Part shown: piece by piece, positions 4,142 to 47,521 of the stretch | How positions within the stretch are numbered: position 1 is the stretch's first letter | Layout: the number at the start of each line of letters is the position of its first letter | Assembly (NCBI RefSeq): GCF_013315695.1 | Contig: NZ_CP054355.1 | Reading direction: 5' to 3' (one strand) | Source: Escherichia coli | GTDB lineage: Bacteria > Pseudomonadota > Gammaproteobacteria > Enterobacterales > Enterobacteriaceae | DNA: 64,000 nt | Program-made: the position numbers and the translations under genes | Notes under the pieces: generated by a model | Databases searched by the model: none | What the model saw: only the letters and a program-made list of their open reading frames with translations | Told to the model about the DNA's origin: nothing

Positions 4142-4657
4142 TTATTTCCGAACCTCGCCCTTGCCTGCGTAACCATCCGTCGCCCCCATCCTGTTTTCAG
4201 ACTGCGGAAAAAGGCAAGTTTTTATCCCCCCACAGAGATTCAATCATATATCGCGTGTTTTGGAAGTGACAGTTCTTATTCCTGAGAATACTGCATGTGC
4301 AACACACTCGGCATCCATCGATACCACTTTTATCTCCAATAGGCAGGATAAAAAACAAGACTGTGAATTAAAGTAATCGGCAAATGAATGAGTTAGAAGA
4401 TACTGAAAATGAATCAAGGACTAACCCCGTAGGGAATGAAAATAATAAAAGAACATCTTGTTTTTATTTTAATGAATGAGCATGTTCTTTTATATTAATA
4501 ACAAAACCTATCATTAAACAAAATGATGAATGACAGAGTTTTCTTTAAAATAGCTTATATTATCTTACAGTAGCTGACATAGTGCAATATAAATTATCAG
4601 CTATGCCATAACGGCTTAGCAGTGTCTAAGCGTAAGAATCAAGACTTCAGTTACAGT

Positions 4658-4873
4658 TTACTCACGGTAGAAATATTTAAGAGCACTAACAATACTGTGT
4701 GTATAGTTTAGTTTTTTTAGGCATAGGCAAAAATAACTAATGGAAACATTGTTCCTTTCACAACTTTCTTGCTTTGAATAACCATCAACCAAATACTCCT
4801 TAAGAGCCATGATGTTTTTTTTACTTCTGATTGGTGATATTTCAATTAAAAGTGAAAAGTGTTCTCCATTCAT
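4658..4873 (-). CDS. PapB/FaeB/PefB-family fimbrial operon regulator (orphan)
   Basis: ORF 4658..4930; segment EHFSLLIEISPIRSKKNIMALKEYLVDGYSKQESCERNNVSISYF parallels PapB (HFFLLIGISSIHSDRVILAMKDYLVGGHSRKEVCEKYQMNNGYF); likely start at internal Met. Confidence 0.55.
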   Translation of the reverse strand: MNGEHFSLLIEISPIRSKKNIMALKEYLVDGYSKQESCERNNVSISYFCLCLKKLNYTHSIVSALKYFYRE

Positions 4874-5454
4874 ACATGATTGAATTAGCTCTGTATTAAA
4901 GTTATTTCTTGGATAGGGGGAGGGAGTCATATATTATCTAACCTTATTTTTCTATTAAAGAATTGAAATAGAATAGACAGAAATGCTATTGGAGTAAGTA
5001 TTTGATAGTAGGTAATTTACGCTCCTATATAGACTATTGTTACTCATATAATATTTTGGGGTGGCTTATGTTGTGACAGCGCCAGTTGTTAAAAACGTTG
5101 TACCGTCATACGGGATAATATAGAACAACCAATAACGATTACTGGTCTATGACCACCGCCAGAGATACAGAAAAGCTTTATCTGTAATGAGCTCAACTAT
5201 ATATCCCGTCAACTGCTGGTTCAGAGCGTTGTCGTAAAAATCCTGTGCAAATAAATTAGTCATATATCAAGCCATTTACGCGGTAACTGGCAGGTCTGAA
5301 ATTTAACCTCCTGACGATGCAGGCTTGCATACATCCATAGTTTTACTTTGGTATGTGACTCTAAGTATGTAGATCATCAGTCCGGCATGGAACGCTGTTT
5401 TGACCCGCTAAAATCCTTACGGAAAAGTAAGGATGTGGATTTGCCCCTATATTT

Positions 5455-5568
5455 CCAGTCATCGGTTCGTCTGAGAATGACGTGCAACTGCGCACGCGAC
5501 ACCCGGAGACAACGGCTGACTAAGCTTACTCCCCATCCCCGGGCAATAAGGGCGCGTGCGCTATCCAC
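5455..5568 (-). pseudogene. insD: IS2 insD 5' fragment (truncated transposase OrfB)
   Basis: [38 protein letters not shown] then unrelated sequence. Confidence 0.7.
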
Positions 5569-39207: not shown

Positions 39208-39571
39208 ACTGTTGCAAAGTTAGCGATGAGGCAGCCTTTTGTCTTATTCAAAGGCCTTACATTTCAAAAACTCTGCTTACCAGGCGCATTTCGCCCAGGG
39301 GATCACCATAATAAAATGCTGAGGCCTGGCCTTTGCGTAGTGCACGCATCACCTCAATACCTTTGATGGTGGCGTAAGCCGTCTTCATGGATTTAAATCC
39401 CAGCGTGGCGCCGATTATCCGTTTCAGTTTGCCATGATCGCATTCAATCACGTTGTTCCGGTACTTAATCTGTCGGTGTTCAACGTCAGACGGGCACCGG
39501 CCTTCGCGTTTGAGCAGAGCAAGCGCGCGACCATAGGCGGGCGCTTTATCCGTGTTGATGAATCGCGGGAT
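39208..39571 (-). mobile_element. IS26 fragment (right end with 3' part of transposase)
   Basis: IR ggcactgttgcaaa at 39208; reading frame gives ...QIPRFINTDKAPAYGRALALLKREGRCPSDVEHRQIKYRNNVIECDHGKLKR...RLVSRVFEM, identical in pattern to IS26 Tnp C-terminus. Confidence 0.8.
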
Positions 39572-39606
39572 CTGGGCTCCGTTTGGGAAACGGAAAATAT
39601 TGTACG

Positions 39607-42594
39607 TTAAGGCTGTTTTTTGTACTGACTGACATCAACTGCTCGCAAAGGACGATACTTCCCTTCAGCCAGCTTCTTATTGTTTTTCCAGATATAGTCC
39701 CCTGTCAGATTAATGTGCTCCCAGCCCAGCGGAGACAAATGTGACAACAATTGCTCATTAATATGTAGCCCTTTCTTTTTCAGCAGGTTAATGGCGTTTT
39801 CTATATATACGGTATTCCACAAAGTGATTGCGGCAGTGAGCAGCGTAAGCCCACTGGCGCGGTAACTCTGGTTTTCAATACCACGATCCCTTATTTCTCC
39901 CAGACGATGCATGAAGACAGCTCTGGCAAGGGCATTCCGGGCTTCCCCTTTGTTCAGACCTGCCTGAACCCTACGACGAAGCGCCGGATCGCGGAACCAG
40001 TCCAGCATGAACAGTGTTCGCTCAATACGACCAATTTCTCTTAACGCCTTAGCAAGGCCATTCTGTTTCGGATAACTGGTCAATTTTTTCAGCATCAGAG
40101 AAGCGGTCACTGTTCCCTGTTTTATTGAGGTCGCCAGTCTCAGAATTTCATTCCAGTGTATTTTTATCTCTTTGATATTCAGGGGGGTTGTGGAGATAAT
40201 TGACTGTAGAGCAGGATAGTTATCAGCTTTACCTTGAATAAACAAACGTTTGTCATGCAGATCCCGGATCCTTGGGGCAAAAGCGAATCCCAGCAGATGC
40301 ATTAGTGCAAAAACATGCTCCGTGAAACCTGCTGTATCGGTGTAATGTTCCGTTATATCAAGGTCACTTTCGTGATACAGAAGACCATCAAGTACGTGGG
40401 TGGAATCACGAACACGACTGATTACTTTGGTATAAAACGGACTATATTGATCTGAGATATGCGTATAAAACTGCACCCCAGGTTCCTGACCGTACTTCAA
40501 ATTAACCTGACCGGCATAGCGCCCATGACTGCCAACCCTAAAATTCTGGCCGTCAGAGGATGAGGTGGAACCGTCTCCCCATAATGCCGCCAGCGGTCGT
40601 GACTTCTGGGCATTAACCAGTTCTGCCAGTGCAGCAGAGTACGTTTCATCACGGATGTACCATGCTTGTATGTTTTCCAGCGAAGCTCGTGTGGTTCCCG
40701 GACAGGACTCTGCCATTTTTTCCAACCCTAGATTGATGCCGTCCGCCAGGATAGTGGTTAGTAGTAAACGATTATCCTGAGGACGGATTAGCGGATTCTT
40801 AAGATGAGTAAAATGTCGCGAGAAGGCAGTCCATCGCTCGACTTCATCAAGTATCTCTGTAATTTTGGGGTGCGGTAGCATGTTGTAAATCAGGTCGGCC
40901 AGGGGAGAGACTGTTGAAGGAACGCTGTTATCCAGTGGGGTGATCTTTACACCTTTATCTGAAATATCCACATCAGGAAGCTCCCCTGCGACAGCCATTG
41001 CGTTAACTTCCTCCAGACGGGAGGCCAGTAGAGTCAGTCTGGCATTAAGATAAGCCCCGCATTCTGTGCCAACAGGTAAATTTAATAGGTTATTATTTAA
41101 TAACTTTTCGAAATCATCGTTAGGCATAAGATAATCATCAAAGTTTTTGTAGCGCCGGGAGCCCCTGACCCAGATATCACCCGCCCGCAGCGCCCCCTTT
41201 AGCTCATTCATTGCGCAAATTTCATAGTATTGTCGGTCAATGCCTGAGGGGGTGACCACCATCTTTCTCCAGCTCTCAGGAATGAAATCCAGTGGTGCCG
41301 ATGCAGGAACCTTTCGTAGCTGTTTACGGTACATATCACGAATAGTTTCAAGGGCATCATTAAGCGGCAACGCTGCCGAAGTGGCTCTCAGTTGCAGGGC
41401 CGATAGAAAACGAAAAGAATATTTGCGCAATGTACTGAATTTTTCGGTAATAAGATGAAGCGGCTCAAAATTATCCTTACGTGCAAGAAGCTTTGTTTCC
41501 TCCAGACTGGCGACAAAATCGTCCCACGGTAACACTCGTTCAATAGCAGACAGAGGATCTTCGCCTGCATTGCGTGCATCCAGGATAGCCTGGCCAACAG
41601 AAACATACTGACGTAACTTTTGCTGTATCAACTTGCCCGTTTTCTGAAGACGCTCAGCCTGCTGATGTTTTGCCCGACTGAACATGCTGCCTAGAATACG
41701 TTCATGCAGTTCTATAATTTCATCAATGATTGTGGCTCTGGCCTCAGTCAGTACACAGACCATCGTTGCGTATCGACGAGCAGGGGAAAAATCAGCCAGA
41801 TCGCGACTGCTCATTTTGCGGCCCTCACGCGCGAGTTTCAGCAATCGGTTCTGGTGAACGGTTCTCTCCACTCCTTCCGGCAGCGCCAGAGCTTCAATAG
41901 CGTTAAGGCGGTCAATGTGTTGCAGGACATTCTTTCCATTGATTTTCCCTGGAGGTTGAAGCAGCCACGTCAAACGGGATATTTGTTTTTCATTTGTCAC
42001 CAACAGGGCATCAAGCGCAGATTTATGCGTGATATCAAGGTGCGCATTCAGCGTTGTATACACCGTTTTATCACCCAGTGTCATTGCTTCTGCACAGGTA
42101 CGTTCCAGAACATCAATGCCTGGAATAATAATTCGCTGTTGATGCAGGTACTTTAGTAACTCCTCTGCGATAAGTATGCCTCTGTCCGTTCTGGTAGACA
42201 GAGGGAGCAGATGCCGGATACATTCTTTCTGAAGTGCACCGTTAAAGGCTTTCAGTTCAAGATATCGATAAAGTTCCCTCATATGCTCACGTCTGGTGGT
42301 ATCACGACCGGAAACGTATTCCTGCCAAAGTTCTGCTGATAACTTAAGTCGAGCGCCAATGGTTTTTAGCAATTTTGCGGGTGGGGATGATTTTTTATCC
42401 GGGGCAAACCCAATACTTTTCAGATAACAGAGAAGAACGGCAAAACCAAACCGGCTGGCAGGTTTACGGTGAGCATTGATAATTGCCAGATCCTGCTCAC
42501 TGAAATACGTCATTCGAGTCAGTGTTAACTCATCGTCTGGCAATGCCAGTAATGATTCTCTTTCCGATAGAGAAAGAATCTGCCTCCTTGCCAT
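39607..42594 (-). CDS. tnpA: Tn3-family transposase TnpA
   Basis: 995 aa; C-terminal DDE region typical of Tn3 family; ends inside IR. Confidence 0.9.
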   Translation of the reverse strand: MARRQILSLSERESLLALPDDELTLTRMTYFSEQDLAIINAHRKPASRFGFAVLLCYLKSIGFAPDKKSSPPAKLLKTIGARLKLSAELWQEYVSGRDTTRREHMRELYRYLELKAFNGALQKECIRHLLPLSTRTDRGILIAEELLKYLHQQRIIIPGIDVLERTCAEAMTLGDKTVYTTLNAHLDITHKSALDALLVTNEKQISRLTWLLQPPGKINGKNVLQHIDRLNAIEALALPEGVERTVHQNRLLKLAREGRKMSSRDLADFSPARRYATMVCVLTEARATIIDEIIELHERILGSMFSRAKHQQAERLQKTGKLIQQKLRQYVSVGQAILDARNAGEDPLSAIERVLPWDDFVASLEETKLLARKDNFEPLHLITEKFSTLRKYSFRFLSALQLRATSAALPLNDALETIRDMYRKQLRKVPASAPLDFIPESWRKMVVTPSGIDRQYYEICAMNELKGALRAGDIWVRGSRRYKNFDDYLMPNDDFEKLLNNNLLNLPVGTECGAYLNARLTLLASRLEEVNAMAVAGELPDVDISDKGVKITPLDNSVPSTVSPLADLIYNMLPHPKITEILDEVERWTAFSRHFTHLKNPLIRPQDNRLLLTTILADGINLGLEKMAESCPGTTRASLENIQAWYIRDETYSAALAELVNAQKSRPLAALWGDGSTSSSDGQNFRVGSHGRYAGQVNLKYGQEPGVQFYTHISDQYSPFYTKVISRVRDSTHVLDGLLYHESDLDITEHYTDTAGFTEHVFALMHLLGFAFAPRIRDLHDKRLFIQGKADNYPALQSIISTTPLNIKEIKIHWNEILRLATSIKQGTVTASLMLKKLTSYPKQNGLAKALREIGRIERTLFMLDWFRDPALRRRVQAGLNKGEARNALARAVFMHRLGEIRDRGIENQSYRASGLTLLTAAITLWNTVYIENAINLLKKKGLHINEQLLSHLSPLGWEHINLTGDYIWKNNKKLAEGKYRPLRAVDVSQYKKQP

Positions 42595-42760
42595 ATAGTT
42601 ATCCTTGTTAATTATTTAGTACGTTATTTTTGATGAAAAGGTTATTGCATAAGGGTACACCCTGATGCGAGATATAAAATGTGACCTCATACAAATAATG
42701 ACATAACCTATATGCGATAGAATATATGCAACAACCTAAATGCGACAATGCGGTGAAAAA
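42595..42760. promoter_or_regulatory. Probable res site and divergent promoters between tnpA and tnpR
   Basis: Position only, by analogy with Tn3-family organisation. Confidence 0.35.
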
Positions 42761-43402
42761 ATGTTCATCAGAGCTTATTTAAGGGCGTCAACAGAAGATC
42801 AGTTTGCAGATCGAGCAAAAGAGATGCTGGAACAGTTCGTCCAAGAACGGGGGCATAAAATTGCCAGTTATTATCGGGAGAACATAAGCGGTACAAAACT
42901 TGACCGTCCGGAACTGAAACGCTTACTGATGGACAGTCACCGTAATGATATTTTGCTGGTCGAGCAGATAGACCGCCTGACCCGACTGAGTAACAGCGAC
43001 TGGATAACGCTGAAAAAGCAGATAGAACAACACGAACTGCGGATTGTCAGTCTGGATGTTCCAACATCATGGCAAGCCCTGTCAGATAAAGATCCTTCAC
43101 AATCAGATCCGATTACCCGCGCAGTGATAACTGCAATAAATAATATGCTTATAGACCTGATGGCCGCGATGTCGCATAAGGACTGGCTGAGTCGTCGCCA
43201 ACGCCAAAAACAGGGAATTGAACGAGCTCATACGTTGGGTAAATACCGGGGAAAACAGGCCGATCAGGAACGTCATCAGAAAGTGTTGTACTACAGACAA
43301 GTAAAAAAACTCAGCATTAGAGAAACAGCAGATGCAACGGGCTACAGCACTTCGCAGGTTTGTCGCATTCAGGCTCTCTATAAAGAGGTTAAACCTGATT
43401 AA
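42761..43402 (+). CDS. tnpR: Serine recombinase / resolvase TnpR
   Basis: ORF 42740..43402, likely start MFIRAYLRAS; serine recombinase N-terminal catalytic pattern and C-terminal HTH. Confidence 0.85.
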   Translation: MFIRAYLRASTEDQFADRAKEMLEQFVQERGHKIASYYRENISGTKLDRPELKRLLMDSHRNDILLVEQIDRLTRLSNSDWITLKKQIEQHELRIVSLDVPTSWQALSDKDPSQSDPITRAVITAINNMLIDLMAAMSHKDWLSRRQRQKQGIERAHTLGKYRGKQADQERHQKVLYYRQVKKLSIRETADATGYSTSQVCRIQALYKEVKPD

Positions 43403-43450
43403 AAAACAGCCTTAACGTACAATATTTTCCGTTTCCCAAACGGAGCCCTG

Positions 43451-43845
43451 CTAGCCTTTTCGTAATCATGCCATTGGAGATCATCTGGATTGATGTTAGG
43501 CATGACGTCTTGGCTGTAAAGCAAAAAATCAAGTGAGTCATCCATGATCTTCTCAAAACGCTTACTGCGGTTGTTTCTGTCACTAATAGAGCCCGCCTGA
43601 TACCACCTTTCCGACAACTGCCGATATCGAAGGAAGTGCTCATCCTCTTTCAGTTGATGAAACTGGTTCCTGATTTGTGCATCAAGCCGAATTGCCAGAC
43701 CAGTAAAATCAGGTAACACAACCTTATGAGGGGCATTTTTGGGAGAAATCAGAGAAATGAATTCAGAAACCTGCATATCCTTGCTCTGAGGCCCGTAACG
43801 TTTATCAGAGCGGCGGGTGCCAATAAAAAAGCTTTCAATCGTCAT
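43451..43845 (-). CDS. Hypothetical protein (about 130 native codons, 3' end fused into Tn3-family IR)
   Basis: ORF 43399..43845 continues into the IR, so the native C-terminus is probably lost. Confidence 0.3.
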
Positions 43846-43883
43846 GATTTACCATATTAATCAGTATGTTACTCATTTATGTG

Positions 43884-44057
43884 TGTATGAGGTTACATGT
43901 AGTACAGATGTAAAACCGGCGTAAGCCGGTGCGTTCGTCCGAAATAACCAATCCGTTCGTCCAGTTCAATGGCTGCTATCAGGTTCTGCTCCGCAATGTA
44001 TTCACGAATGCGCTTCCTGTCCTGGCTGGCCAGCATGGTCCAGAATATCTCCATCAT
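43884..44057 (-). pseudogene. ParE/RelE-family toxin gene, truncated after about 45 codons
   Basis: Manual translation MMEIFWTMLASQDRKRIREYIAEQNLIAAIELDERIGYFG... then unrelated sequence and stop; ATG overlaps antitoxin stop (ATGA). Confidence 0.45.
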
Positions 44058-44323
44058 TTACCGGCAACCTTCCTGCTCATTTCATCTCGCCATGCTGCAG
44101 CAGAGGATTCGACCATGTCATGGGGAAGTACATCGCCGTGCTCGAGTTGCTGACGTCCTGCCTCAACCTGGTCACGGAACCAGGTATTATGCTGCCGTTC
44201 AACGGTCTGACGCATAAAATCCCGGATTAACTGAGAGCCATTACGGTCCATGCTTTTTGCAGCGGCCATAAAAGCATCCTTCAGTTCAGCGTCGATTCTT
44301 AAACTCATATTAACCTGTGCCAT
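44054..44323 (-). CDS. Ribbon-helix-helix antitoxin (ParD/RelB-like)
   Basis: 89 aa MAQVNMSLRIDAELKDAFMAAAKSMDRNGSQLIRDFMRQTVER...; upstream of and overlapping the toxin fragment. Confidence 0.55.
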   Translation of the reverse strand: MAQVNMSLRIDAELKDAFMAAAKSMDRNGSQLIRDFMRQTVERQHNTWFRDQVEAGRQQLEHGDVLPHDMVESSAAAWRDEMSRKVAGK

Positions 44324-45236
44324 TTATCACCTCGTCATTACTACGTATATACACAGTATATAACGATTCAGACATCGTCACCAGGATATGCCGCGTCAGC
44401 GGCATGGAAGGCGGCACGCTGTGGTTACATGTGATACCGGAGTAAAACCGCCGAAGCCCGGCGTCAGCCGATACTGATTGATAGATTTCACCTTACCCAT
44501 CCCCAGCCCTGCCAGACCATACCCGCTTTCAGCCATGAGAGAGCTTCTGTGCGCGGTCGGAGTGGTCCCGACGAGGGTTTACCCGAAGTCGGGGCGTATC
44601 TCCGCGTTAGCGGGCCGTGAGGGCCGCTTACGAGCGTGTACTGAGAACTTCCAGCGAGAAGACTGACAGCGATGATGATGTAGTTACAACATTCATAATT
44701 AAAAGCGACTCTGTTCCGGCCCTTCGGGCCGGGGCGGGGCCGCTTTTCAGTTATGAGGGAGGGGCTTTGTTGTTTCGGTTCTGCGCTGGACCGGGGTTTT
44801 CCTGGTGGTTGTATTTGAGTGTTGTAACTAAAATGGCTCCGGTCGGGGCCCGCCGCTTGCGGTGGGAGGTGCATATCTGTCTGTCCACAGGACAGGCAAT
44901 GAACAGGTTTTCTTTTTAAATGAATGTAATTAAGTAGTTTAAAGGAGATATAAACAGGTGTTTAAAAGATACATTGCACCCTGTAACGCTGGCGGCTGGC
45001 GCTTTATGAGGTGAACGGTTGTAACCTTATCGGGAAGTCCCTTGCAGTTTAATGTGGATAAGCACAATTACCCGTCTGTGAGGCGTATTTTGTATTAAAA
45101 ACAGGGGGAACCGGATGCACCTGAAGGTGGATGGTGAGGTTATTTTTTGTATGTGGTGCTGATTTTTTGTGCACTGGCGGGCTTCAGGCGTGCGGAAGCC
45201 TCCGGCGCGTGCCGGATTATTCTGAGGAGGTCACTT

Positions 45237-46094
45237 TCAGGGGGAAGCTGTAGCCAGCCGGCTGTAATTGCGGTTACGTGACAGAATCATGCGCTCCTTC
45301 ACACGACGCTCCACTTCGCGTTTTACCGTCTCACCATTAGCAGTAAAGCGCCCTTCCGAGATTTCACGCGTCAGCTGCCGTTTCACCAGGGTGACGATAT
45401 CCTGACGTTCCCTGTTCGCATCACGACGCGCACGGGCACGTTTTATTCCACGGGACTTAAGCTCTGTCTGGTAACTGCGGAAACGCTCACGCACAAAACG
45501 CCAGGCTTTCGCTATTAGTTCATCCATACCCAGGGTATCCAGCCCCTGTTTTTTGCGCTGTCTGTTTTCCCATTCAACACGACTGCGGCGCGCAGCTGCC
45601 ACTGCATCCTCAGACACATCAAGGGCAGCAAACAGAGCCGGTGTGAACGTGATATCGGTCGGAATGTAGCACCCGATAAGCGGGTCATATTCCGTCTGGT
45701 AGGTAATCAACCCCAGCTCTGACAGGAACGTCAGGGCACGGGTGGCACGAGTGATGGAGAGTTTTCCTGCACCGGACTCTGTCGCCAGTCCGCACTCAAT
45801 GGCCAGCGTGGTGATGGAGCACTGGACGCGGTTGGCCAGCGGGTCATAGTGGAAACACAGCCCCTGCAGGAGCGCATCAATAGCCCGTCGACGCAGCACC
45901 GGTGGCATGCGTCGACGCAGACCACGCGAACGGGCATGCGCCACATGAATGGCGAAATCAAAACGGGAGGTGAAGCCCACCGCCTTTTCCATCAGTTTTT
46001 CGCAGAACTTCAGCGTTCCGGCACCTTTACGGGGTGTAAACACCGGATTCGGGTTCTTTACCTGGCGGTAATACGTTTGGTGAAGATCAGTCAC
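45237..46094 (-). CDS. repA1: IncFII (RepFIIA) replication initiator RepA1
   Basis: ORF 45237..46106; ...[64 protein letters not shown]... matches R100/R1 RepA1. Confidence 0.9.
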
Positions 46095-46231
46095 ACCATC
46101 CTGCACTTATGTTGCACAGAAGGAGTGAGCACAGAAAGAAGTCTTGAACTTTTCCGGGCATATAACTATACTCCCCGCATAGAGCAACAGCTTCTATGCA
46201 GTTTCTTGTTAGCCCCGGTAATCTTTCCTAC

Positions 46232-46330
46232 TCGCCAAAGTTGAAGAAGATTATCGGGGTTTTCGCTTTTCTGGCTCCTGTAAATCCACATCAGAACCAG
46301 TTCCCTGCCACCTTACGGCGTGGCCAGCCA
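46232..46330 (+). ncRNA. copA: CopA antisense RNA region of the IncFII replicon (approximate)
   Basis: Leader sequence gttgaagaagattatcggggttttcgcttttctggctcctgtaaatccacatcagaaccagttccctgccaccttacggcgtggccagccac recognised as the CopA/CopT target region; boundaries and strand inferred. Confidence 0.4.
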
Positions 46331-46405
46331 CAAAATTCCTTAAACGATCAGCAATCTATCACGCACACCAGAAACAGGCAAGAATGTGATGTCGCTACAT
46401 TTTAG

Positions 46406-46654
46406 TTAGCTAAAAGCACTCTTCTGCTTTATCAGTTCGGCAATCATCTCAGCCTGGGTAACGCCCTCAGCTTCACACATCACCTGCAATTGCGCTTTTA
46501 ACGCAGCAGGAATGAACACTCTGAGTTCTTTATGTGTAGCTCGTTTTCTTGCCAGGGATGCCTGCTGACGTTCTGCAAGCGTCAGAGGATTACCTTTTCT
46601 GTATGCTCGCTTTGTACCTGATGAGGAAGTCACTGCATTTTCTGTCTGCGACAT
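46406..46654 (-). CDS. repA2: IncFII copy-number repressor RepA2 (CopB)
   Basis: 82 aa basic protein directly upstream of the repA1 control region. Confidence 0.8.
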
Positions 46655-46810
46655 CTCGCCTCCTCAATACTCAAACAGGGATCGTTTCGCAGAGGATACT
46701 ACAGTTTTTTGAAATCAGCGACTTGAGAATTGTGACGAAGATCTGTGTTGGCGCACAAATCAACGGGGATTACTGTCGTTTAATGTGATTTAAACTGTGA
46801 AATAGTATGG

Positions 46811-46895
46811 TTTTCAGTTATGGAAACGCCGGGAGCGGGGAAAACTTGCTTTTTCCCGTTTCCGGGGTTGGACAACTGAGCAACGCGAAGGCGTC
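46811..46895. repeat. Conserved about 85-bp element, copy A (gttttca..ggaaacgccgggag...ccggggttggacaac.gagcaacgcga.ggcgtcagc) followed by hairpin
   Basis: About 75 percent identical by eye to 59537..59620; both copies lie just 3' of a minus-strand gene. Confidence 0.6.
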
Positions 46896-47484
46896 AGCTA
46901 CGATGTTCCGGGGACTGCTGATCAGCCCCTGTTGTATTCAGCCATTCTCCGGTCATCTGCAGCAGTTTTCTGGCATCGTGGCTTCTGAGCAACGGAATAC
47001 CAGCCTGCCTCAGAACCTCTTCCAGAAGAATATCCCGGCGTCTGCGTTCCGGTCGTAAATGGCTGGCATCATCCAGCTCTACTGCTGCAACAATACTGAA
47101 CGAACGCCGCTCAACGATAACCACATCAACATGCCACTGAGACACCATCCTGAATAACTGCCACCACTGGCGTGATCGTGGCCGGATATTCCCGTTCAGC
47201 TGGACGATATCCGCGACCCGTACCTGCGGACACAGATACCACCGCTTCATATCCACAATTCTGAACAGTCCTTTCATAAAACTGACTTCCCTTTCTGTCA
47301 GCAGCGTCTTCTGACGTTGCCAGTATTCACCGCCGGACAGTATTCGCTCTGCATCACCGGTCCGTATACCTGCCGCATGCAACTGCATCAGCAAAGGAGA
47401 ATGCTGATTTACACTTCTGAGGATAATCCGGATAAGTAACGCTGCAATAATCAGAACAATGAGAATAAAAATAATCAGCTTCAT
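46894..47484 (-). CDS. Conserved IncF backbone protein with N-terminal TM helix (possibly DUF2726 nuclease-like)
   Basis: 196 aa ORF; position between repA2 and finO; family from memory only. Confidence 0.45.
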   Translation of the reverse strand: MKLIIFILIVLIIAALLIRIILRSVNQHSPLLMQLHAAGIRTGDAERILSGGEYWQRQKTLLTEREVSFMKGLFRIVDMKRWYLCPQVRVADIVQLNGNIRPRSRQWWQLFRMVSQWHVDVVIVERRSFSIVAAVELDDASHLRPERRRRDILLEEVLRQAGIPLLRSHDARKLLQMTGEWLNTTGADQQSPEHRS

Positions 47485-47521
47485 TGTTTATCTGCTCCTG
47501 GTAATTAATTATTCTGAATTA

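Follow-up and report, generated by a model that had tools for sequence, protein, structure and literature searches.

A surviving yacA antitoxin gene and a truncated yacB in a decayed toxin–antitoxin module beside an IncFII replicon of Escherichia coli

The yacAB genes form a type II toxin–antitoxin (TA) module of IncF plasmids. On the Shigella flexneri plasmid pWR100/pINV an orphan YacA (Orf176) lies beside an inactivated YacB, and the pair is regarded as a non-functional TA system (PMC5658099; PMC7354431; PMC9455713). Here we describe a locus of related kind in a 64,000-nucleotide stretch of Escherichia coli DNA (contig NZ_CP054355.1 of RefSeq assembly GCF_013315695.1), referred to throughout as the window, in which three minus-strand genes adjoin an IncFII replicon (window 43399–44323): yacA, a fragment of yacB, and a clipped copy of a gene for a hypothetical protein of 307 codons, whose open reading frame (ORF) is called ORF307 below. 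The locus is a known, annotated and decayed variant of a known plasmid TA system, which has suffered further damage by ordinary transposon-associated rearrangement. It is very probably the remains of a yacAB module, placed directly downstream of the IncFII oriR, that has passed through two successive rearrangements. The features of the antitoxin and toxin genes are as follows.

44339–44358: 7-3-7 palindrome, read as TATATAC TGT GTATATA on the minus strand and lying immediately 5′ of the ribosome-binding site of yacA (inverted-repeat search)
44054–44323, minus strand: yacA, an intact ribbon–helix–helix (RHH) antitoxin gene of 89 amino acids (ORF and match to the reference YacA)
43893–44057, minus strand: yacB fragment, a hybrid ORF of 54 codons starting at 44057, its ATG overlapping the yacA stop codon as ATGA
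43944–44057, minus strand: yacB-derived part of the hybrid ORF, codons 1–38 only, which cover the first strand, the first helix and some of the second helix in the ParE fold (tblastn and alignments)
43893–43943, minus strand: foreign end of the hybrid ORF, 16 codons and a stop, overlapping copy 2 of a leader repeat described below and unrelated to canonical yacB or yacC

The antitoxin gene is intact, as the initial annotation of this DNA had proposed. YacA is identical to the reference protein WP_000079928.1 at 88 of 89 residues over its full length (98.9%; tblastn E 3e-57), the sole substitution being A54E, and other plasmids with identical DNA have it annotated as ‘type II toxin-antitoxin system antitoxin YacA’. 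Profile matches to RHH_1 and RelB/DinJ are weak and fall below the curated cut-offs. With yacA the locus possesses the small intact antitoxin with an N-terminal RHH DNA-binding domain that is one mark of a TA module. The palindrome upstream of the gene is identical in canonical yacAB plasmids and, by analogy with the way in which RHH antitoxins autoregulate, is a putative YacA operator. Since the upstream region is kept together with this palindrome and differs little from its canonical counterpart, yacA would be expected still to be transcribed from its own promoter with its palindromic operator, to be translated and to repress itself.

The second mark of such a module, a coupled and complete ParE/RelE toxin, is only half present, the ATGA coupling being retained and the fold being incomplete. 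Canonical YacB is a protein of 92 amino acids which matches the Pfam family ParE_toxin end to end (63 bits) and aligns with the solved ParE 5cw7 over residues 3–92 (E 9e-8). The fragment in the window aligns only with YacB residues 1–37 of 92 (97% identity; tblastn E 2e-20) and with positions 1–32 of the 89 in the ParE_toxin profile, in keeping with the earlier description of a truncated ParE-like toxin whose start overlaps the antitoxin gene. That description had the toxin frame ending after about 57 codons, with unrelated sequence beginning at its end; the truncation holds, but the frame has 54 codons and the unrelated sequence begins well inside it, at a breakpoint between 43943 and 43942 after yacB codon 38, which makes the last 16 codons foreign. 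The DNA from upstream of yacA to 43943 is 97–98% identical to that of a canonical yacA–yacB–yacC plasmid and is unrelated beyond, and in a megablast search of PLSDB the homology to some 1,700 canonical yacAB plasmids likewise stops at 43943. A search for a remainder of the gene displaced by a sequencing frameshift, the result by which the initial annotation would have been overturned, placed YacB residues 38–92 in no frame of the window (best tblastn E 0.21, in an unrelated place), and the truncation stands. Judged from the sequence, YacB is thus truncated through replacement and not through a frameshift. The part lost makes up most of the ParE fold, including the β-sheet and the C-terminus. 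ParE-type toxicity relies on the β-sheet and C-terminal parts, and the absence of both from YacB makes killing of plasmid-free segregants implausible. The 54-residue hybrid peptide is presumably non-functional, YacA would have no cognate toxin to neutralise, and the locus should no longer be able to cause post-segregational killing.

The junction that joins yacA and the truncated yacB to ORF307 is not new; it is recurrent and already annotated. In a survey of the approximately 2,200 PLSDB plasmids with yacA-like DNA the canonical yacAB structure is found in approximately 1,700, while the exact yacB breakpoint and the sequence beyond it are common to approximately 55 (e.g. NZ_CP027554, CP088376 and pCoo NC_007635), and the ORF307 gene directly follows the breakpoint in essentially every carrier (55 versus approximately 58 records). 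NZ_CP027554 is 99.95% identical in DNA to window positions 43448–47422. In pCoo and a relative the same junction is flanked by DNA of only about 94% identity, a divergence which indicates that the event is old and not a recent accident. On the same DNA the RefSeq annotation (Prokaryotic Genome Annotation Pipeline, PGAP) records yacB as a pseudogene of 37 codons, ‘incomplete; missing C-terminus’, together with the antitoxin and a hypothetical protein.

The foreign sequence that replaces the end of yacB opens with a leader of a recognizable pattern, a 6-bp GC hairpin, TTTTAC, 9 nt and ACATGTAACC within the first 75 or so nucleotides past the breakpoint, of which the window holds a second copy on the other side of yacA.

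44420–44461, minus strand: leader repeat copy 1 (hairpin, TTTTAC, 9 nt, ACATGTAACC), between oriR and yacA
43888–43929, minus strand: leader repeat copy 2, the same pattern with ACATGTAACC; its hairpin at 43915–43930 reaches one base past the repeat

The two copies form a direct repeat of 42 nt with 76% identity; the window contains the pattern in these two places and no others, where 0.06 occurrences would be expected. A terminator-like site at 44449–44463 falls in the region of copy 1, and the hairpin of copy 2 folds with −11.6 kcal/mol (z −2.2). In an alignment that includes pCoo, copy 2 shows homology to the leader that precedes an unrelated RHH–ParE pair in the IncF plasmid CP056643.1 (2501–2553). 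A short similarity across the breakpoint, GGATTGGTTAT in yacB versus GGACTGGTGAT in the CP056643 leader, would be compatible with microhomology-assisted illegitimate recombination. The repeat may represent a terminator/promoter leader shared by these modules, or a boundary prone to recombination. Upstream of the more distant ORF307 homologues the motif is not kept.

Beyond copy 2 lies the third gene of the locus, which ends within the terminal inverted repeat (IR) of a transposon.

43399–43845, minus strand: third ORF, 148 amino acids (ORF list), without a family match in Pfam or in NCBIfam, where this truncated ORF was the only query
43449–43845, minus strand: 5′ 132 codons of the 307 codons of ORF307 (hypothetical protein WP_001415483.1), defined by DNA identity to the full-length gene
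43399–43448, minus strand: read-through end of the third ORF, 16 codons and a stop inside the transposon end, past the point at the IR where similarity to the full-length gene is lost

The ORF had been described as an unknown one of 130 codons and as possible cargo brought in by the rearrangement, and a homology search had been suggested for it. That search identifies the 5′ part of the gene for WP_001415483.1, with 100% DNA identity down to 43448 to the 5′ end of the 924-bp gene in NZ_CP027554 and others. The ORF is real, but it consists of 132 native and 16 read-through codons, and the native part is 43% of a 307-codon gene; the 3′ 175 codons (57%) are lost, and the C-terminal part is nowhere in the window, including the other side of the transposon. 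Its arrival as cargo agrees with its presence behind the breakpoint in nearly all of the records counted above, but since only a 43% fragment remains, a functional cargo role here is very unlikely and the 148-residue stub is presumably inactive. In other plasmids the gene for a 126-residue helix–turn–helix (HTH) protein follows ORF307, and resistance-gene regions come next. In pCoo NC_007635.1 (2699–3397) and NZ_LR883053.1 (399–1097) ORF307, at about 94% DNA identity, is shortened to 232 amino acids with a divergent C-terminus, and the gene therefore appears to decay repeatedly, yacA staying intact.

The transposon on which ORF307 ends, together with the sequence on its far side, comprises the following features.

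39574–43448: Tn3-family transposon of 3,875 bp (IRs, transposase and resolvase)
43410–43448, minus strand: right terminal IR of 39 bp, an exact match to the copy at 39574–39612
42740–43402, plus strand: tnpR, 220 amino acids (Resolvase domain, 76 bits)
39607–42594, minus strand: tnpA, 995 amino acids (DDE_Tnp_Tn3, 492 bits; DUF4158, 146 bits)
39260–39573, minus strand: 3′ fragment of the gene for an IS26 transposase, lying directly against the left IR (tblastn with an IS26 transposase query)

ORF307 matches the full-length gene as far as 43448/43449, exactly where the 39-bp IR ends, so that the earlier statement that a Tn3-family IR clips the ORF is borne out. The IRs are perfect (GGGCTCC...CGTTAAGG, at 39574–39612 and 43410–43448), with none expected by chance, and the element displays both the terminal IRs of about 38 bp, starting GGGG or GGG and ending TAAG, and the DDE transposase with resolvase that characterize the Tn3 family. 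The 5-bp target duplication is lacking, the flanks being GATCT (39569–39573) on the left and TGCTA (43449–43453) on the right. Plasmid pEBM1 has an intact IS26 in this position, and the alignment with it extends to 39574. The differing pentamers and the position of the left end inside the IS26 gene argue that the present arrangement is no simple insertion and arose by deletion or recombination at a later stage. The right-hand junction of the transposon occurs in no PLSDB plasmid and in no RefSeq complete E. coli genome, and the Tn3 cut of ORF307 is the only feature of the locus specific to this plasmid. The closest relatives of the element in PLSDB are only 87–95% identical to it.

The analysis establishes how the locus is built, where its breakpoints lie and how they recur among other plasmids, and that the C-terminal parts are gone, and two steps would account for all of this. 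In the first, an old event, illegitimate recombination would have fused codon 38 of yacB with foreign DNA made up of a TA-type leader and the 307-codon gene, at the expense of the YacB β-sheet and C-terminus and of yacC. In the second, confined to this plasmid, the 3.9-kb Tn3-family element would have come to abut codon 132 of the 307-codon gene when a deletion or recombination associated with the transposon or with IS26 took away the rest of ORF307, a mechanism proposed because the element has no target duplication. In such a history YacA would persist mainly as the neighbour of a replication origin, at little cost to the plasmid.

A number of points weigh against this account of decay. No consensus sigma-70 site came out of a simple scan for promoters in front of yacA, the gene taken to be still expressed. 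The literature search found no paper in which an active addiction system is demonstrated for canonical YacAB from plasmids of E. coli, and for this reason to speak of a loss of function is to presume that the intact module works. Finally, in a comparison of 10 plasmids with the truncated arrangement and two canonical ones, yacA is intact in all 10 of the variant plasmids, which could mean selection and not linkage alone, and its 14 variable sites across the 12 sequences comprise 11 synonymous changes and only three replacements, all conservative (A54E, H62R and V86I).

The yacA pattern leads to the alternative that fares best, namely that orphan YacA is selected as an anti-addiction factor which neutralises the YacB of incoming or lost canonical yacAB plasmids (IncF, IncI) so that a host losing or excluding such plasmids would survive; the concept of anti-addiction has been reviewed (PMC7354431). 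The initial annotation had suggested that an antitoxin left without its toxin may serve in anti-addiction or as a regulator. A single residue separates this YacA from the canonical protein, making cross-neutralisation chemically plausible, and the canonical plasmids against which it would act are very common, as the PLSDB survey indicates. The excess of synonymous change in a gene kept whole in every variant, while the neighbouring ORF307 is repeatedly truncated, also speaks for it. However, the dead yacB fragment displays the same third-position bias, at four of its six variable sites, and several of the yacA variants are common to canonical alleles; the yacA polymorphism has probably been imported from intact alleles by recombination. 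The polymorphism therefore says little on whether yacA is under selection or merely hitch-hikes beside oriR. Moreover, pEBM1, a close relative with the same kind of replicon in which IS26 replaces everything from about 44381 leftwards, is entirely without yacA, and yacA is thus dispensable for replication. On balance we regard selection for anti-addiction as a reasonable idea but an unlikely one, and decay with persistence of yacA by linkage as the preferred reading.

A further proposal concerns the foreign gene. The ORF307 family is small, with 20 clusters among 5.8 billion proteins and 60 representatives at E ≤ 1e-3 among 1.84 billion, and Pfam searches with ORF307 and with 37 family members gave no match, nor did PADLOC, and PHROGs gave only a non-significant one (E 0.069, of unknown function). 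Two ORF307 profiles found no match among PDB sequences, and a literature search on WP_001415483 returned no paper. The homologues occupy variable regions of mobile elements, in the seven contexts listed here.

IncHI2 plasmid: in the backbone, with parA as a neighbour and Ppl close by
Citrobacter plasmid: beside colicin and CBASS (cyclic oligonucleotide-based antiphage signalling system) genes
Aeromonas prophage: flanked by Q and by a type I restriction system
Morganella: in a P4-like island
Klebsiella variicola: 49 nt downstream of vapBC, the homologue being 50% identical
Next to a gene for an AAA_15 ATPase
Next to genes for a caspase-like protease and hipBA

The neighbours in these contexts are mutually unrelated, and no conserved partner gene for ORF307 was found among them. 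The AlphaFold model, built from 37 sequences, is all-α with a predicted local distance difference test score of 80.7, the N-terminal 25 residues being conserved and modelled with low confidence, and the protein contains no hydrophobic segment of membrane-span length. The predicted fold of the full-length protein comes closest to α-helical pore-forming bundles, with a faint resemblance to those of JukB, PirB (N-domain) and Cry (domain I), which we treat as a lead only. JukB, the effector of the Juk system directed against jumbo phages, is reported to form pores on the early-infection vesicle of these phages (PMC13282480). ORF307 differs from all three in that sequence identity is 5–9%, there is no match at the profile level and the Foldseek search of the model against the PDB gave nothing significant, and it differs from JukB in being without a conserved JukA-like partner and without a PADLOC match. 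That the family is a new soluble toxic or anti-phage effector of pore-former type, spread by plasmids, prophages and satellites and captured in IncF plasmids behind a TA leader where YacB had been, with YacA kept as its regulator or for anti-addiction, is a highly doubtful reading.

About as doubtful is the related suggestion that in the ancestral variant yacA and the 307-residue protein constituted a new functional pair, ParE having been swapped for another effector that YacA would regulate or neutralise, and that the window copy is a broken example of this pair. In the approximately 55 plasmids of the variant the ORF307 gene does come immediately after yacA and the yacB fragment, its leader is homologous to those of RHH–ParE modules, and the Klebsiella variicola homologue stands just downstream of vapBC. 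Against this, there is a hairpin with a T-run between the yacB fragment and ORF307, homologues are found without a YacA-like gene in IncHI2 plasmids, prophages and the P4-like island and have no conserved partner, ORF307 has no sequence-level link to any solved protein, and the window gene is short of more than half of its length. As for a full-length yacB concealed by a sequencing frameshift or by mis-assembly, its chance is practically nil, there being no similarity to the YacB C-terminus in any frame and the same junction being present in dozens of independently sequenced complete plasmids as well as in the diverged pCoo.

On its other side the locus is bounded by the replicon, of which two features were identified.

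45237–46106: RepA (IncFII_repA profile), the oriR region lying between RepA and the locus
46179–46268, plus strand: CopA antisense RNA (Rfam RF00042, 89.8 bits)

An Rfam scan of 42500–47500 found only the CopA RNA, and nothing in the interval of the locus. Two oppositely oriented Ter-like cores were read by eye in the oriR region, ATGTTGTAACT at 44682–44692 (minus strand) and GTGTTGTAACTAAA at 44819–44832 (plus strand), which we take to resemble the Tus-binding sites of R1/R100-type replicons. The closest relative of the backbone, pMS20675C (4213–5522), has a Hok/Gef gene and a 157-residue ORF between copB and a DUF2726 gene, and the corresponding region of the window, 46300–46900, is about 1 kb shorter. 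With tblastn no match to Hok/Gef, CcdB, PemK or a second ParE was obtained in the 64 kb, and of the classic IncF killer toxins the three used as queries, Hok/Gef, CcdB and PemK, are thus absent from the window. Positions 14600–39574 hold an iron-uptake and senB-type virulence region, with a TonB-dependent receptor, an FTR1 permease, an ATP-binding cassette transporter and senB, which is 99.8% identical to pEBM1 and to the plasmid NC_017647.1 of E. coli O7:K1 CE10 and ends at the IS26 fragment interrupted by the Tn3-family element.

Taken alone the locus is of little importance, being a textbook case of the erosion of an addiction module by illegitimate recombination and transposon activity in which the antitoxin survives, and dozens of public plasmids already carry, and are annotated with, this eroded allele. 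As a recurrent natural orphan of a very common plasmid antitoxin it nevertheless offers a handy test case for anti-addiction among competing IncF plasmids. The ORF307 family, rare, confined to mobile elements and without a known domain, could be screened in its full-length form as a candidate defence or toxin gene.

Compared with the canonical yacAB of IncF and IncI plasmids, the locus retains the position downstream of the IncFII oriR, yacA, the promoter region with its palindrome (at 96–98% DNA identity for the gene, promoter region and palindrome) and the ATGA-coupled start of yacB, whereas the complete yacB and the following yacC (a 3′–5′ exonuclease gene) are here both replaced by leader-like sequence and ORF307. 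Canonical YacB shares the full ParE fold with the toxins of PaaA2–ParE2 and ParDE (5cw7, 5czf), of which the fragment in the window preserves only the N-terminal third. The approximately 55 plasmids with the same breakpoint keep the whole 307-codon gene, or in pCoo the version of 232 codons, and the downstream HTH gene, while in the window the Tn3-family element cuts in at codon 132. The likeness to pWR100/pINV of Shigella lies in an intact YacA next to an inactive YacB; the route to that state differs, a 2-nt insertion having led to a premature stop there, whereas here the 3′ two-thirds of yacB have been replaced.
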